A stretch of 7,513 nt of DNA from a virus (taxonomy: Duplodnaviria > Heunggongvirae > Uroviricota > Caudoviricetes). The notes beneath the pieces were generated by a model. It did no database searches. It was not told where the DNA came from and worked only from the letters and a program-made list of their open reading frames with translations. The stretch spans positions 1-7,513 of IMG/VR virus record IMGVR_UViG_2698536348_000008, one strand, 5' to 3'. This document shows positions 499-7,513 of this stretch, in pieces. The position numbers and the translations under genes are program-made. Every line of letters starts with the position of its first letter. Positions within the stretch are counted from its first letter, which is position 1.

Positions 499-591
499 AT
501 GAGTCTTTTGAATGAAGTTCAGAAATTCATTGAAGCCCATCCGGGGTGTACTTCCGGAGACATTGCGGATGCTTTTTACGTGGGGGCTTAA
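499..591 (+). CDS. Possible small ORF (30 aa, MSLLNEVQKFIEAHPGCTSGDIADAFYVGA) between the replication gene and dam; hypothetical
   Basis: ATG 499-501 lies 2 nt after the upstream stop and is preceded by a G-rich stretch (caggggg). Its stop TAA 589-591 shares a base with the dam ATG at 591 (TAATG). Below the ORF-track length cutoff; no homology recognised. Confidence 0.25.
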   Translation: MSLLNEVQKFIEAHPGCTSGDIADAFYVGA

Positions 592-1244
592 TGAGTAATA
601 AATATTGCCAGGCGCTGGTAGAACTGCGGAACAAACCAGCCCATGAACTGAAGGAAGTGGGCGATCAGTGGCGCACGCCGGACAACATTTTCTGGGGAAT
701 TAACACCTTGTTTGGTCCGTTTGTTCTGGATCTGTTCACTGACGGTGATAACGCCAAATGTGCCGCGTATTACACGGCGGAAGACAACGCGCTGGCGCAT
801 GACTGGTCAGAACGTCTTGCGGAGCTTAAAGGTGCTGCCTTTGGTAATCCCCCATACAGCCGCGCCAGTCAGCATGAGGGGCAATACATCACCGGCATGC
901 GTTACATCATGAAACATGCCAGTGCCATGCGTGATAAGGGCGGGCGCTATGTTTTCCTGATCAAAGCGGCCACCAGCGAAGTGTGGTGGCCGGAAGATGC
1001 AGATCATATTGCTTTTATTCGCGGGCGTATTGGTTTTGAACTGCCAGCCTGGTTTATCCCGAAAGACGAAAAGCAGGTGCCAACAGGTGCTTTCTTCGCT
1101 GGTGCTATTGCTGTTTTCGACAAGACCTGGAAGGGAGCGGCAATCAGCTACATCGGGCGCGATGAACTTGAGGCATGTGGTGAGGCGTTTCTGGCGCAGG
1201 TTCGCCAGCAGGCGGAAAAACTGGTCAGGGAGATGGCGGCATGA
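591..1244 (+). CDS. Phage DNA N6-adenine methyltransferase (Dam-family phage MTase)
   Basis: Translation contains the catalytic motif FGNPPYS (NPPY/DPPY motif IV) and an N-terminal WRTPDNIF segment typical of phage Dam-type MTases. ATG at 591 gives MSNKYCQ...; the ORF-track start at 546 is a GTG with no RBS, so 591 is preferred. Stop overlaps the next gene's start (ATGA at 1241-1244). Confidence 0.8.
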   Translation: MSNKYCQALVELRNKPAHELKEVGDQWRTPDNIFWGINTLFGPFVLDLFTDGDNAKCAAYYTAEDNALAHDWSERLAELKGAAFGNPPYSRASQHEGQYITGMRYIMKHASAMRDKGGRYVFLIKAATSEVWWPEDADHIAFIRGRIGFELPAWFIPKDEKQVPTGAFFAGAIAVFDKTWKGAAISYIGRDELEACGEAFLAQVRQQAEKLVREMAA

Positions 1245-1567
1245 CGACATTAACTCAATGCCAGCAGCAGGTGCTGGATATGCTGATTTCTTATCAGAAA
1301 GAACGTGGCTTCCCGCCAACCAATCAGGAGGTGGCAACCATGCTGGGATACCGTTCGGTGAATGCAGCGGTGGAGCATCTTCGCGCACTGGAGAAAAAAG
1401 GTGTCATCACGATAAAGCGTGGCGTGGCCCGGGGTATCACTCTTCATACCGCGGTGAAGGACGACGACAGCGAGGCGGTCGGGATTATCCGCGCCCTGCT
1501 TGCCGGTGAGGCAAACGCCAGGCTGCGTGCAGCCCACTGGTTACATGAGAGGGGCCTGAAAGTATGA
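1241..1567 (+). CDS. LexA N-terminal DNA-binding-domain-like protein (winged HTH only, no S24 peptidase domain), 108 aa
   Basis: LTQCQQQVLDMLISYQKERGFPPTNQEVATMLGYRSVNAAVEHLRALEKKGVITIKRGVARGITL aligns by eye almost residue-for-residue with E. coli LexA residues ~4-68 ([65 protein letters not shown], recalled from memory). No Ala-Gly cleavage site or Ser/Lys peptidase domain follows. Coupled to neighbours by ATGA overlaps at both ends. Confidence 0.75.
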   Translation: MTTLTQCQQQVLDMLISYQKERGFPPTNQEVATMLGYRSVNAAVEHLRALEKKGVITIKRGVARGITLHTAVKDDDSEAVGIIRALLAGEANARLRAAHWLHERGLKV

Positions 1568-1959
1568 AGCTAATACTGCCTTTTCCGCCCAGCGTGAACA
1601 CGTACTGGCGACACCCCAACAAAGGGGCGTTTGCTGGTAAGAGCCTGATAAGCGCGGCGGGGCGAAAATTCCAGAGCGCGGCGTGTGCAGCAATAGTTGA
1701 GCAGTTACGTCGTCTGCCGAAACCAACGTCGGCACCTGCTTCAGTGGAGATCGTGTTGTTTCCTCCGGATAACCGGATCCGCGATCTGGACAACTATAAC
1801 AAGGCGCTGTTTGACGCCCTGACCCACGCGGGTGTGTGGGAAGACGACAGACAGGTGAAAAGAATGCTGGTGGAGTGGGGACCGGTTATCCCGGAGGGGA
1901 AGGTCGAGATCACTATCAGTAAGTACGAAAAAGCGAGTTGCAAATTAGCAACTCGGTAA
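1564..1959 (+). CDS. rusA: RusA-family crossover junction endodeoxyribonuclease (Holliday junction resolvase)
   Basis: LPFPPSVNTYWRH ... RDLDNYNKALFDALTHAGVWEDDRQV matches the RusA pattern (LPWPPSNNRYYRH ... [26 protein letters not shown] in E. coli RusA, from memory). RBS GAGAGGGG precedes the ATG; typical nin-region position. Confidence 0.85.
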   Translation: MKLILPFPPSVNTYWRHPNKGAFAGKSLISAAGRKFQSAACAAIVEQLRRLPKPTSAPASVEIVLFPPDNRIRDLDNYNKALFDALTHAGVWEDDRQVKRMLVEWGPVIPEGKVEITISKYEKASCKLATR

Positions 1960-2121: not shown

Positions 2122-2937
2122 ATGAATCAGTTGCTTGTAATTGATGGCGTTTCTGTGCGCCAGTACTTCGAATCTAACTACTGTCTTAACGACCTTCAGA
2201 AAGCTGCTCTTCTTGCCGCTGGTGAGAATCGCTCCTCCCGTTCGCTGGAAGTTCACGAGTTTATGCGTCGTCCTGAAACGAAGGCTCTTGTGGAATTATT
2301 GGAAGAAGAAACTACGGGAGATTCCCGTAGTATTCCTGTCATCACCATTCAGGGGCGCAATGGTGGGACGTATGTCTGTAAAGAGCTGGTCTATGCATAT
2401 GCAATGTGGATCAGCCCGGCATTCAGCTTAAAAGTGATACGTACTTTTGATGCGCTTCATAATTCATCACCAGAAGAAACCACATCCGACAAAATTAAAT
2501 CCGGGGTCATTCTGCTTGAATCAGCAGCAAAGACTCTAAATCTGTCAAACTCCTCGAAACTTGGTGCATACCAGAAATTATCAAAGGTAGCTGGTCTTCC
2601 TGAACTTATGCCGATCTATGCCATTGATGCACCTGCTGATGCGCCAGATGGTTCAAGCCGCCCTACGCTGTCGCTGAGTGCACTGCTGAAGCAGTATGGT
2701 ATCCGCCTGACGGCTAATCAGGCATATCACCAGATGGCGAAGCTGGGGATCGTTGAACAACGCGAACGATACAGCCGTACCGCGATTAACAACATCAAAA
2801 AATTCTGGTCGCTGACAGCGAAAGGTTGCATGTTCGGCAAGAACATCACCAGTCCCGCAAATCCGCGCGAGACGCAGCCGCATTTCTTCGAATCCCGATT
2901 CCCTGAGCTGTTAAAGCTGCTCGATACCGTTCATTGA
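2122..2937 (+). CDS. KilA-N domain protein (Roi-like phage DNA-binding protein)
   Basis: N-terminal region (GRNGGTYVCKELVYAYAMWISPAFSLKV) resembles KilA-N domains of phage Roi-type proteins found between nin genes and Q (family-level memory). ATG 2122 has RBS GGAG at 2112-2115; the ORF-track start at 2110 is a GTG inside that RBS. Confidence 0.7.
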   Translation: MNQLLVIDGVSVRQYFESNYCLNDLQKAALLAAGENRSSRSLEVHEFMRRPETKALVELLEEETTGDSRSIPVITIQGRNGGTYVCKELVYAYAMWISPAFSLKVIRTFDALHNSSPEETTSDKIKSGVILLESAAKTLNLSNSSKLGAYQKLSKVAGLPELMPIYAIDAPADAPDGSSRPTLSLSALLKQYGIRLTANQAYHQMAKLGIVEQRERYSRTAINNIKKFWSLTAKGCMFGKNITSPANPRETQPHFFESRFPELLKLLDTVH

Positions 2938-2938
2938 G

Positions 2939-3934
2939 GTGACCGTGAGAGCACTACTGACCCCTGAAATTGCCCCGCGTATGGGGATCGTATTGTTCAG
3001 ACCCGGTTCAGAGCTGATGCCCCTGTTTATGCAGGGGCGTGTCCTGCTGGAGCCTGAGCCGGAACGTTATTCATCTTTTGCCAGTGGTGCCGTTCCGGCA
3101 GCATCACAACCGCTGGCGGATGATCCTGCCGTTCGGGCCGTGTTCCGCAATGAGGCAGTGATCCGTCGTGCTGGTGGCGTGGAATGTCTTGAAAGCTGGT
3201 TACTTCGTGAAAAAGGTTGCCAGTGGCCTCATTCCGACTGGCACAGCGAGAACATGACCACAATGCGACACGCGCCGGGCGCAATCCGTCTGTGCTGGCA
3301 CTGCGATAACCAGCTGCGCGATCAGTTCACGGAACGGCTGGAATCAATGGCAACGGATAACTGTGCCCGCTGGGTGTTGTCTGTTGTGCGTCGGGATCTC
3401 GGTTTTGATGACAGTCACGTTGTGACAATGCCGGAACTGTGCTGGTGGCTGGTTCGTAATGATCTGGCGGATGCCTTACCGGAAAGTGCAGCCCGTAAGG
3501 CACTGAGATTACCGAAGCCTGTTGTGCCGTCTGTCACCCGGGAGAGTGACCTTGTGCCTTCGGTTCCGGCCACCAGCATCATCCAGAATAAAGCGAAAAA
3601 GGTGCTGGCGCTGAAAGTGGATCCGGAGTCGCCGGAGTCTTTTATGTTACGCCCAAAACGTCGCCGCTGGGTTAACGAAAAGTACACGCGCTGGGTTAAG
3701 ACGCAGCCGTGTGCATGTTGTGGAAAGCCTGCTGATGATCCCCACCACCTGATAGGCCACGGTCAGGGGGGAATGGGTACAAAAGCGCATGACCTCTTCG
3801 TGCTGCCTTTGTGCAGAAAGCATCACGACGAGCTGCATGCGGATACCGTGGCATTTGAAGAGAAGTATGGCTCCCAGCTGGAGCTGATATTTCGTTTTAT
3901 CGATCGTGCGCTGGCAATAGGCGTGCTGGCCTGA
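2939..3934 (+). CDS. DUF968-like prophage protein with C-terminal HNH-like Cys/His cluster
   Basis: C-terminal RWVNEKYTRWVKTQPCACCGKPADDPHHLIGHGQGGMGTKAHDLFVLPLCRKHHDELH resembles the conserved core of DUF968 proteins in E. coli prophages (e.g. YdfU-like; memory). Start is uncertain: GTG 2939 sits 1 nt after the upstream stop, and the first ATG is at 2981 with no clear RBS. Confidence 0.6.
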   Translation: MTVRALLTPEIAPRMGIVLFRPGSELMPLFMQGRVLLEPEPERYSSFASGAVPAASQPLADDPAVRAVFRNEAVIRRAGGVECLESWLLREKGCQWPHSDWHSENMTTMRHAPGAIRLCWHCDNQLRDQFTERLESMATDNCARWVLSVVRRDLGFDDSHVVTMPELCWWLVRNDLADALPESAARKALRLPKPVVPSVTRESDLVPSVPATSIIQNKAKKVLALKVDPESPESFMLRPKRRRWVNEKYTRWVKTQPCACCGKPADDPHHLIGHGQGGMGTKAHDLFVLPLCRKHHDELHADTVAFEEKYGSQLELIFRFIDRALAIGVLA

Positions 3935-3951: not shown

Positions 3952-4323
3952 ATGCGTGATATTCAAATGGTTCTTGAACGTTGGGGGGCATGGGTGGCAA
4001 ATAATCACGAGGATGTGGAATGGTCATCTGTTGCTGCAGGTTTTAAGGGATTAATTCCTTCGAAAGTAAAATCCCGCCCGCAATGTAGCGATGACGATGG
4101 CCTGATCATTAGCTCTGCGATGACAGTTCTTAAGAAAAAGGAACCGTATCAATACGAATTACTGGAAATGTATTATGTGTATGGGGTTACATTACGGGTG
4201 TTGGGGGTAAAACTGGGGATATCACTTAATCAGGTTGTTATCAGACTGCAGAAAGCTGAAGGGTTTATTGACGGTTGTCTGGCAATGTTGGGGGTATCTT
4301 TAGAAATTGATTGTTACATATAG
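3952..4323 (+). CDS. Antitermination protein Q (QuuD-like short Q)
   Basis: MRDIQMVLERWGAWVANNHEDVEWSSVAAGFKGLIPSKVKSRPQC... closely resembles the DLP12 prophage Q homologue QuuD as I recall it. ATG 3952 has RBS GGAG at 3941-3944; the ORF-track start at 3937 is TTG. Confidence 0.75.
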   Translation: MRDIQMVLERWGAWVANNHEDVEWSSVAAGFKGLIPSKVKSRPQCSDDDGLIISSAMTVLKKKEPYQYELLEMYYVYGVTLRVLGVKLGISLNQVVIRLQKAEGFIDGCLAMLGVSLEIDCYI

Positions 4324-4398: not shown

Positions 4399-4632
4399 AT
4401 GGATAAAAATGTAGAGCATGTATTAGTTGATGCAATTGAAAATAAGCAATCTTTAACAGTCGTTTACTTAGGAGGGAGCCAGCCCGGAACATTAAGGAAT
4501 ATTTCTCCGATTAGTATAAATGGGGATAAATTGCGGGCAAGATGCCATAGTTCTGGAGCAGTAAAGGTTTTCAATCTTGGGAAAATACAGTTACCCAGTG
4601 ACTCCTGCGCGGTATCTATGCACTATGGAGAT

Positions 4633-4636
4633 TTAG
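4633..4636. repeat. IS5 target-site duplication, left copy (TTAG)
   Basis: TTAG immediately outside the IS5 left terminus; an identical TTAG flanks the right terminus. IS5 makes 4-bp duplications at YTAR-type targets (established). Confidence 0.85.
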
Positions 4637-4652
4637 GGAAGGTGCGAACAAG
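4637..4652. repeat. IS5 left terminal inverted repeat
   Basis: GGAAGGTGCGAACAAG; its partner at 5816-5831 reverse-complements to GGAAGGTGCGAATAAG. Confidence 0.9.
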
Positions 4653-4659
4653 TTCCTGA

Positions 4660-5685
<1,026 letters not shown>

Positions 5686-5815
5686 AAACTGGGGATAACG
5701 CCTTAAATGGCGAAGAAACGGTCTAAATAGGCTGATTCAAGGCATTTACGGGAGAAAAAATCGGCTCAAACATGAAGAAATGAAATGACTGAGTCAGCCG
5801 AGAAGAATTTCCCCG

Positions 5816-5831
5816 CTTATTCGCACCTTCC
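5816..5831. repeat. IS5 right terminal inverted repeat
   Basis: CTTATTCGCACCTTCC, inverted complement of the left terminus with one mismatch. Confidence 0.9.
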
Positions 5832-5835: not shown

Positions 5836-6344
5836 AAGTTAAAGCTTATGAGACGATGCAGAGCGTAAATGACAACTTTCATGCCCTTTATCCTGAAGGA
5901 CGATGGGGTGTTGATTTTAATGAGCATCGCTTTGCTTTATTTGATTTTTTTAAAAACGGGAAACGAAAAAAAACGGCATTTATGGCAATTGAGTTCAGGG
6001 AAAGAGATGAAGAGAAAATAATAACAGGTGTAACAATTGATATTGGTATATCTGGAACAGTGATTTCTGAGAAGTCCCGAATCCCAAAAAGACGACCATG
6101 GGTAGTGGTTGGTCCCGAACACGGAGAATACAGTACTTATTCAACTTTGGACAAGGCTGCTACAGCGTTTTTTGAGAGGCTTTCGTTGATAGCATCCGGC
6201 CTGGAAGATAATTGATTTTATGTTTGGTATTCAGAGTTCGCCGTGCTTAAGAAAGTCAAGATTCTAAAAATACTGAATGAGCTACTTGTGTTATAACAAA
6301 AATGCTATTAGTGTGTTAAGAGTGGTTACTTCGCCACACAACTT

Positions 6345-6369
6345 AAACCCGCCACTGAGCGGGTTTTTT
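6345..6369 (+). terminator. Rho-independent terminator (8-bp stem AAACCCGC/GCGGGTTT, 6-nt loop, T6 tract)
   Basis: Stem 6345-6352 pairs with 6359-6366 and is followed by TTTTTT 6364-6369. Lies about 130 bp after the cargo ORF stop. Confidence 0.6.
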
Positions 6370-6491
6370 GTACCTGTAAACTTGGTGCAGTACAGTAAAC
6401 ACGCTGGTGGTCGTGAATACTGACTTTTTATCTTGCTGGCTTTTTAGACAAGAGTTATTGGTATGTCATGTTAACCAGAAGGGAAAAAGAC

Positions 6492-6689
6492 ATGCTAAAA
6501 CAGCAAGATATGACCGAAACCGCCAGAGTGGTGTTTAATGAATTGAGCGTCACCGAACCGGCGACAGTCGGGGAGATTGCGCAGAATACTTACCTTTCAC
6601 GCGAACGCTGCCAGTTAATACTGACCCAGCTGGTTATGGCGGGTCTGGCAGACTATCAGTTCGGTTGTTACAGACGCCTTCCGCAGTGA
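6492..6689 (+). CDS. Small hypothetical protein (~65 aa) with HTH-like segment
   Basis: The ORF track gives 6468-6689. I prefer ATG 6492 because it is preceded by AAGGGA at a suitable spacing, whereas 6468 has no RBS. TVGEIAQNTYLSRERCQLILTQLVMAGL resembles a helix-turn-helix (pattern only). Ends inside a terminator-like hairpin. Confidence 0.4.
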   Translation: MLKQQDMTETARVVFNELSVTEPATVGEIAQNTYLSRERCQLILTQLVMAGLADYQFGCYRRLPQ

Positions 6690-6699
6690 AGGCTTTTTT
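6676..6699 (+). terminator. Candidate rho-independent terminator (6-bp stem GCCTTC/GAAGGC, 6-nt loop, T6 tract)
   Basis: GCCTTC 6676-6681 pairs with GAAGGC 6688-6693, followed by TTTTTT 6694-6699. The stop codon of the small ORF lies in the loop/stem. Confidence 0.45.
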
Positions 6700-6716
6700 A
6701 TTTGTGGTAAATGGGC

Positions 6717-6747
6717 GGCTGGTGGGTGTTAGGGGCACCCACCAGCC
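6717..6747. repeat. Perfect 12-bp inverted repeat (GGCTGGTGGGTG / CACCCACCAGCC) with 7-nt spacer; each arm contains a Chi octamer
   Basis: Left arm 6717-6728, right arm 6736-6747, exact reverse complements. GCTGGTGG is at 6718-6725 (+ strand) and its complement CCACCAGC at 6739-6746. Confidence 0.6.
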
Positions 6748-6839
6748 ATCTGCTCATGCGTTGGGTTCACAAGCAAACCTCAGGCCCACTGCTTTGCGCA
6801 AAAGCAGAATGAGCCTATCAGAGACAGGCTTAATGATCC

Positions 6840-7513
6840 ATGCTTAATACTGTAAAAATATCCAGTTGTGAGTTAATCAACGCCGACTGCCTGGAATTTA
6901 TCCGGTCGTTACCCGAAAATTCTGTTGACCTGATAGTCACGGACCCGCCGTACTTTAAAGTGAAGCCTGAGGGCTGGGATAACCAGTGGAAGGGCGACGA
7001 TGATTACCTGAAGTGGCTGGACCAGTGTCTGGCGCAGTTCTGGCGGGTGCTGAAACCTGCCGGAAGTCTTTACCTGTTCTGTGGTCATCGCCTGGCATCT
7101 GATATCGAAATCATGATGCGTGAACGCTTCAGTGTGCTGAACCATATTATCTGGGCGAAGCCGTCCGGACGCTGGAACGGATGCAACAAGGAAAGCCTGC
7201 GGGCGTATTTCCCCGCCACAGAGCGCATTCTGTTCGCGGAACATTATCAGGGGCCGTATCGTCCGAAAGATGCCGGGTATGAGGCGAAGGGCAGGGCACT
7301 GAAACAGCATGTGATGGCCCCGCTGATTGCTTACTTTCGTGATGCGCGCGCTGCCCTGGGGATAACGGCAAAACAGATTGCAGATGCCACAGGAAAGAAA
7401 AACATGGTGCCGCACTGGTTCAGTGCCAGTCAGTGGCAGCTACCGAACGAAAGCGATTATCTGAAATTACAGTCGCTGTTTGCCCGGGTGGCAGAAGAGA
7501 AACATCAGCGCGG
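6840..7513 (+). CDS. DNA methyltransferase (N6-adenine/N4-cytosine type, DPPY motif), 5' portion; continues past the window end
   Basis: Not in the ORF track (no stop in window). From ATG 6840 I translated 224 codons without a stop: MLNTVKISSCELINADCLEFIRSLPENSVDLIVTDPPYFKVKPEGWDNQWKGDDDYLKWLDQCLAQFWRVLKPAGSLYLFCGH... The TDPPY motif near the N-terminus and overall pattern resemble YhdJ/phage-type MTases. The minus-strand ORF 6909-7415 overlaps it and is rejected. Confidence 0.8.
   Translation, partial: MLNTVKISSCELINADCLEFIRSLPENSVDLIVTDPPYFKVKPEGWDNQWKGDDDYLKWLDQCLAQFWRVLKPAGSLYLFCGHRLASDIEIMMRERFSVLNHIIWAKPSGRWNGCNKESLRAYFPATERILFAEHYQGPYRPKDAGYEAKGRALKQHVMAPLIAYFRDARAALGITAKQIADATGKKNMVPHWFSASQWQLPNESDYLKLQSLFARVAEEKHQR

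Follow-up and report, generated by a model that had tools for sequence, protein, structure and literature searches.

A predicted zinc-stabilised HNH (His-Me finger) nuclease core in the C-terminal third of a lambdoid prophage DUF968/YdfU protein

In this study, a compact cluster of cysteine and histidine residues was analysed in a lambdoid prophage protein belonging to DUF968/YdfU. The cluster likely makes up the active site of an HNH endonuclease domain (His-Me finger, beta-beta-alpha-metal) that is stabilised by zinc and situated in the C-terminal third of the protein. The first-pass annotation had proposed a metal-dependent nuclease in place of a protein of unknown function, and the proposal is supported as a prediction by a match to the Pfam family HNHc_6 above its cut-off, matches to HNH families in PHROG, a profile match to the solved structure of YbcO (E=0.008), structural models with a beta-beta-alpha unit and the retention of a His/Asp set across the family. 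The window, i.e. the whole stretch of 7,513 nucleotides that was analysed, is part of the early-right (nin-like) region of a lambdoid prophage of E. coli or Shigella. The DUF968 gene closes this early-right operon: the replication genes, Dam, RusA and KilA-N precede it, and the gene of the late antiterminator Q follows directly. The features of relevance are the following.

546..1244, Dam-type methyltransferase
1241..1567, LexA-like protein consisting of the DNA-binding domain only
1564..1959, + strand, RusA-family Holliday-junction resolvase, two genes upstream of the DUF968 gene (Pfam RusA E=1.3e-14, PHROG 34, RefSeq annotation)
2122..2937, + strand, KilA-N domain gene, directly upstream of the DUF968 gene (Pfam KilA-N E=1.3e-15, RefSeq CDS)
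2939..3934, + strand, open reading frame of the DUF968 protein as called mechanically, 331 aa, with GTG 2939 two codons before GTG 2945
2945..3934, + strand, coding sequence of the DUF968/YdfU-family protein, 329 aa, with GTG 2945 as the start, as in annotated relatives
3611..3931, + strand, C-terminal domain (aa 225-331), predicted HNH/His-Me-finger nuclease domain with flanking helices
3704..3838, + strand, HNH core motif Q256-H300 (the Cys/His cluster)
3952..4323, + strand, late antiterminator Q, directly downstream of the DUF968 gene (Pfam Phage_antitermQ E=1.5e-47, RefSeq CDS)

Residue numbers of the DUF968 protein are counted from GTG 2939 throughout. RefSeq relatives are annotated with 329 aa, which corresponds to GTG 2945; database proteins of this length are 98-99% identical to the window protein, and RefSeq lists a CDS for the gene in both E. 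coli S88 and phage SfII. The gene is tightly spaced on both sides, with the KilA-N stop 7 nt before GTG 2945 and the start of Q 18 nt after the DUF968 stop. The earlier suggestion that the gene lies next to RusA was partly correct: a RusA gene is present at 1564..1959, but the KilA-N gene (2122..2937) stands in between and RusA is hence two genes upstream.

Several further observations pertain to the surroundings of the gene. The LexA-type protein (1241-1567) comprises 108 aa without an S24 peptidase domain; its gene shares 1241-1244 with the end of Dam and 1564-1567 with the beginning of RusA, suggesting translational coupling. In the KilA-N protein (2122-2937), residues 67-122 match the PADLOC candidate defence model PDC-S22 (E=7.6e-10). 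After Q, the window carries a WYL-domain gene split by a copy of IS5, followed by the start of another DNA methyltransferase gene. The IS5 copy (4637-5831, 1195 bp, transposase ORF 4705..5685) is accompanied by a 4-bp TTAG target duplication and separates the N-terminal part of the WYL gene (4399..4636) from its C-terminal remainder, which extends to 6215; E. coli S88 has an uninterrupted version of 205 aa. The right end (~6700-7513) shows 100% identity to sequence that other E. coli genomes carry under the annotation 'DNA-methyltransferase'. It would be a second methyltransferase gene of the prophage and is cut off by the window edge. It also differs from the S88-type prophage, which matches the rest of the window. 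No tRNA genes were found within the window.

The Cys/His peptide quoted in the first-pass annotation is indeed encoded here, as the ORF 2939..3934 (+) reads ...QPCACCGKPADDPHHLIGHGQGGMGTKAHDLFVLPLCRKHHDELH... at residues 256-300 (nt 3704-3838), inside the interval 3650-3850 to which it had been assigned. These 45 residues, Q256-H300, hold 4 of the 10 cysteines and 7 of the 12 histidines of the protein, and on shuffling of the protein a 45-aa window with at least 11 Cys/His arose in 14 of 20,000 trials (p ~7e-4). Column conservation was assessed among 39 relatives of the DUF968 protein, down to 25% identity, and the positions of interest are given below with their predicted roles.

3710-3712, C258, predicted zinc ligand, 39/39 relatives
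3719-3721, C261, predicted zinc ligand, 31/39 relatives
3743-3748, H269-H270, predicted catalytic set, H269 in 35/39 and H270 in 36/39 relatives
3791-3793, D285, predicted catalytic set, 39/39 relatives
3812-3814, C292, predicted zinc ligand, 33/39 relatives
3821-3823, H295, predicted zinc ligand, His in 16 and Cys in 15, hence H or C in 31/39 relatives
3824-3826, H296, predicted catalytic set, 35/39 relatives
3836-3838, H300, predicted catalytic set, 35/39 relatives

It can be seen from these columns that the spacing, which had been read as that of an HNH core, is the canonical zinc-HNH pattern and is conserved among the relatives. The first knuckle had been described as C-x-CC; it is best read as C258-x2-C261 (CxxC), as C260 is conserved in only 15/39 relatives. 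Histidine (16) and cysteine (15) replace one another at position 295, as would be expected of a zinc ligand, and the CxxC ... CxxC/H pattern of the zinc subgroup is present in the sequence of the DUF968 protein as a predicted zinc site. D285 stands where asparagine is usual in HNH and His-Me finger proteins. The C-x2-H-H-x3-H spacing of the protein matches the C-x2-C-H-x3-H spacing of the classical HNH motif.

Family searches place the protein in Pfam DUF968 (PF06147) with 272.9 bits against a gathering threshold of 27.8 (E=1.5e-81; residues 162-328 on profile positions 2-171 of 171), and the C-terminal domain (aa 225-331) alone is recognised at 4e-60. The protein also matches HNHc_6 (PF16784), just above the cut-off of 26.6, scoring 26.8 bits with the full-length sequence and 29.9 bits with the isolated domain, and this match extends over residues 253-310 and covers only profile positions 123-184 of 204. 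PHROG 96, named "HNH endonuclease", matches the DUF968 protein end to end (E=2e-177), and the HNH PHROGs 131, 22514 and 7370 match the core with E-values of 3e-7 to 2e-4. With a profile built from 46 C-terminal domains, the sole solved structure matched among PDB sequences was YbcO (3g27, E=0.008), in an alignment that places H270, D285, C292, H295 and H296 on equivalent YbcO residues, H270 falling on the YbcO histidine. The PDB sequence search with the whole DUF968 protein was of no use, YbcO appearing at E=1.3, and the whole-protein profile gave no match.

Other families were less responsive. The C-terminal domain did not match canonical HNH (PF01844) even at E<=10, and NinG (PF05766) likewise gave no match at E<=10, so that membership of the protein in either family was rejected. 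RecA_dep_nuc (PF16786) scored 18.2 bits on the C-terminal domain, below its cut-off of 26.9 (E=0.0028), and NCBIfam contains no model for the DUF968 protein. PADLOC gave 0 families at E<=0.01 for this protein and a defence role was rejected on that account. A search of the protein database with the C-terminal profile retrieved only close relatives, without informative domain fusions.

AlphaFold2 models were obtained for the whole protein (pLDDT 86.9) and for residues 225-331 (pLDDT 94.9, pTM 0.83), and both contain a helix, the knuckle, a strand at 267-270, a strand at 288-291 and a helix at 293-301. In these models, the two strands and the helix have the beta-beta-alpha layout of the HNH/His-Me finger, with H270 closing strand 1 (267-270) and C292, H295, H296 and H300 lying at and in the helix. 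Structure prediction of the C-terminal ~100 residues had been put forward as the check on the nuclease claim, a non-nuclease zinc ribbon being the outcome to watch for; the modelled unit is a beta-beta-alpha one and the claim withstands this check. Foldseek comparison of the full-length and domain models against the PDB returned HNH proteins in all of the 14 best matches (McrA, Cas5-HNH, Cap5 and IscB) with a best E of 0.1 and TM of 0.3-0.5, none being significant, and YbcO itself was not among the PDB matches listed. We regard this outcome as consistent with the HNH reading and not as proof of it. Against the predicted viral structures of BFVD, significant matches were obtained to stand-alone phage DUF968 proteins of ~110 aa (E down to 7e-8), followed by weaker ones to Ref-like (E=0.03), HNH and endonuclease VII proteins.

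The assignment of DUF968 to the HNH group is already published and used in annotation and is not new, and as a finding from this window it adds little. Curtis 2014 (PMC4118853) and Jablonska 2017 (PMC5714182) count DUF968 among the zinc-containing HNH/His-Me fingers and describe RusA and Q as its neighbours. In the latter work, DUF968 and DUF1364 (YdfU, YbcO) constitute His-Me finger group 7, the RusA, Q and antirepressor neighbours are noted and a role in recombination/repair is proposed (PMC5714182). [quoted passage not shown] RefSeq phage records name the gene 'HNH endonuclease' and some UniRef clusters 'HNH nuclease domain-containing protein', and the NCBI PGAP label is only 'DUF968 domain-containing protein'. 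The 2024 y-ome paper lists YdfU as uncharacterised, and the searchable literature yielded no experimental study or biochemical data on any DUF968 protein.

Comparison with known systems helps to position the window protein. YdfU of the Qin prophage in E. coli K-12 belongs to the same PF06147 family and shares both the two-part architecture and the position before a Q gene. At the DNA level, the likeness to K-12 ydfU is confined to the 3' third of the window gene, i.e. the part encoding the HNH domain (~85% nt identical), and the N-terminal two thirds are too diverged for a match. YbcO of the DLP12 prophage (DUF1364, 3g27) is also found in a nin region next to RusA, but unlike the window protein it is a 96-aa stand-alone domain without the N-terminal part, and it carries Ala/His in place of H269/H270 and Asp in place of H300. 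With HNHc_6, represented by Orf-HNH fusions of Listeria and Staphylococcus phages, only the core is shared; the Orf-like N-terminal part is unmatched, and the N-terminal domain of the window protein is unrelated to any Pfam model.

Two recombination nucleases deserve particular mention. Ref of P1 (PF16786), an experimentally studied small phage HNH protein acting in recombination as a RecA-dependent nuclease, matches the core weakly and the window protein is not a member of its family. Rap/NinG of lambda (PF05766) is a structure-specific nuclease that acts on branched recombination intermediates and occupies an analogous nin-region slot before Q. Its architecture differs from that of the window protein and the likeness lies only in gene position and presumed role. 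Rap provides the best functional analogy; it has been classed in His-Me finger group 24 (PMC5714182).

The question of catalytic or structural function was approached with a core alignment of 77 representatives (50% clustering) covering the HNH core. In 47/77, neither the zinc ligands nor the His/Asp residues have been lost, and an incomplete set of cysteine ligands is seen in ~16/77 (e.g. C261 replaced by T/S/N and C292 by S/R/T/L/A), 2-3 of which look like truncations or frameshifts. All of these ~16 retain H269, H270, D285, H296 and H300, and H270, D285 and H300 are present together in the window protein and in 65/77 representatives. The persistence of the His/Asp set where the zinc cysteines have been lost argues for catalysis over a purely structural finger. 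We prefer an active nuclease for the window protein mainly because this set survives decay of the zinc site, and the window protein possesses both sets.

A family sub-branch that lacks two or three of the zinc cysteines and keeps the whole His/Asp set can be regarded as a zinc-less variant of the domain; it includes P0174, P0182, P0213, P0229, P0233, P0238, P0254, P0260, P0262, P0264, P0266 and others. At locus L006, the zinc-less member P0238 lies between lambda-type O/P and an antiterminator. In one further representative, P0258, every motif histidine is replaced by tyrosine (CCCYYYDYY), and this looks like an artefact of C-to-T sequencing error or damage and not like biology.

It could be argued that the cluster belongs to a non-catalytic treble-clef zinc finger, in which the HNH fold would be used only for contacts with DNA or with a protein partner, such as might occur in the regulation of late transcription, and we judge this reading unlikely. 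It would be in keeping with the lack of significance of the Foldseek matches to solved HNH nucleases, with the constant location of the DUF968 gene beside Q or an antiterminator and with the annotation of one member as a transcriptional regulator (PMC5714182). It also draws on PdcB of P1/P7, which forms a small branch in the core alignment, a distant full-length relative (~25-30% identity) of the same two-domain layout encoded just before the late-gene activator Lpa, which keeps the four zinc cysteines (CxxC...CxxC) and is without H269/H270, H296 and H300. Judged by these residues, PdcB is probably not a nuclease, and its possession of the cysteines without the histidine set implies that the fold can persist without the nuclease site. 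Against this reading, the window protein has H270, D285 and H300, like most representatives. D285 is invariant, and the retention of the His/Asp set in every relative lacking the zinc cysteines is the opposite of what a purely structural finger predicts. The place next to Q is simply the end of the early operon. As a side observation, PdcB was found at 6001-7044 of loci L007 and L008 and at 2501-3544 of L009 (phage RCS47), and some RefSeq records, those of P7 (NC_050152) and SJ46 (NC_031129), give it the name 'HNH endonuclease', probably an over-annotation.

Other kinds of HNH nuclease were weighed along with the possibility of a chance motif. A selfish homing endonuclease, transmitting its own gene from one phage to another related one, could be considered because free-standing HNH genes are common as mobile elements in phages, the nin region has a mosaic make-up and only some lambdoid phages possess the DUF968 gene. 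This is nevertheless very improbable, since the conserved N-terminal part of 220 aa and the same operon position are maintained down to 28-30% identity in distant hosts and the gene is packed tightly between its neighbours like an ordinary operon member. Pfam, moreover, reveals no homing family: the full length matches only DUF968 and HNHc_6 at E<=0.01, and RecA_dep_nuc is the one addition when segments are searched separately at E<=10, the N-terminal 160 aa giving none. Even less probable is a packaging-associated HNH nuclease assisting the terminase at cos/pac cleavage. Some phages do need an HNH protein for terminase cutting, and at locus L003 the Nu1/gpA terminase genes follow ~2.5 kb downstream of the gene. 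Known packaging HNH genes, however, directly adjoin terminase genes, whereas here Q and the lysis cassette separate the gene from the terminase and the gene belongs to the early operon; the lambda-type terminase of L003 also has a nuclease domain of its own, GpA_nuclease. The homing and packaging readings were both rejected. That the cluster is a chance feature of an unrelated protein has practically no probability, for nothing beyond the small size of the motif speaks for it and it is refuted by the shuffling result, by columns conserved in 39 relatives to 25% identity and by the strong family E-values.

The data themselves show the motif, its conservation, the family membership, the predicted fold and the constant gene position; zinc binding, catalysis, substrate and biological role are inferred from these, with HNH enzymes of solved structure as the analogy for the mechanism. 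C258, C261, C292 and H295 would coordinate a structural zinc by which the hairpin is pinned to the helix. As the last residue of strand 1, H270 would serve as the general base that activates water, and H300, probably with H296 and/or H269 or D267, would bind the catalytic divalent metal. D285 would replace the structural asparagine of the H-N-H motif. The DUF968 protein would most likely cleave or nick intermediates of phage replication or recombination, as lambda Rap/NinG or P1 Ref do, a role suggested by the position of the gene at the end of the early operon just before Q. The location between the replication genes and a late antiterminator is kept even in relatives of 28-30% identity from other hosts.

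Apart from the HNH core, the N-terminal domain contains another conserved Cys/His cluster, the only feature seen here that the literature consulted does not describe.

3218..3307, + strand, C94, H102 and C119-W-H121-C122-D123, predicted second zinc site, within a domain at ~3179-3409

Conservation is high for C94 (38/39), C119 (39/39), W120 (38/39) and D123 (35/39), with H20/C19 at position 102 and H25/C14 at position 122, and each of the four putative ligand sites is occupied by Cys or His in 38-39/39 relatives, with H/C interchange. In the AlphaFold2 model, the cluster is carried on its own hairpin and helix (strands 106-111 and 114-119, helix 120-126). The N-terminal domain had no Pfam match in any of 33 members and no PDB sequence match, and PHROG 11007, of unknown function, was its sole match.

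The N-terminal and C-terminal HNH profiles align collinearly but weakly in hhalign (P ~0.01, probability 3-4%), and a score as high was reached in 8 of 300 column shuffles; an ancient internal duplication may be hypothesised. As a tentative and rather doubtful extension, the protein may carry two related zinc beta-beta-alpha modules, of which the N-terminal one would be a degenerate, catalytically dead HNH duplicate, yielding a single-site pseudo-dimer that favours nicking of branched DNA over cutting of both strands, with the dead module acting as a reader of DNA structure.

The same gene is found at 96.8-98.3% DNA identity in phages cdtI, SfII, SfIV and mEp460 and in several Stx2 phages, and it is very common, occurring in 2363 of the 5426 complete E. 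coli genomes (~44%). If the prediction is true, about this proportion of complete E. coli genomes, together with many Stx-, cdt- and serotype-converting phages, would carry an uncharacterised nuclease, encoded in the operon ahead of Q and the genes for toxin and lysis. Identification of its substrate would fill a remaining gap in the lambdoid nin region and would take YdfU off the E. coli y-ome.
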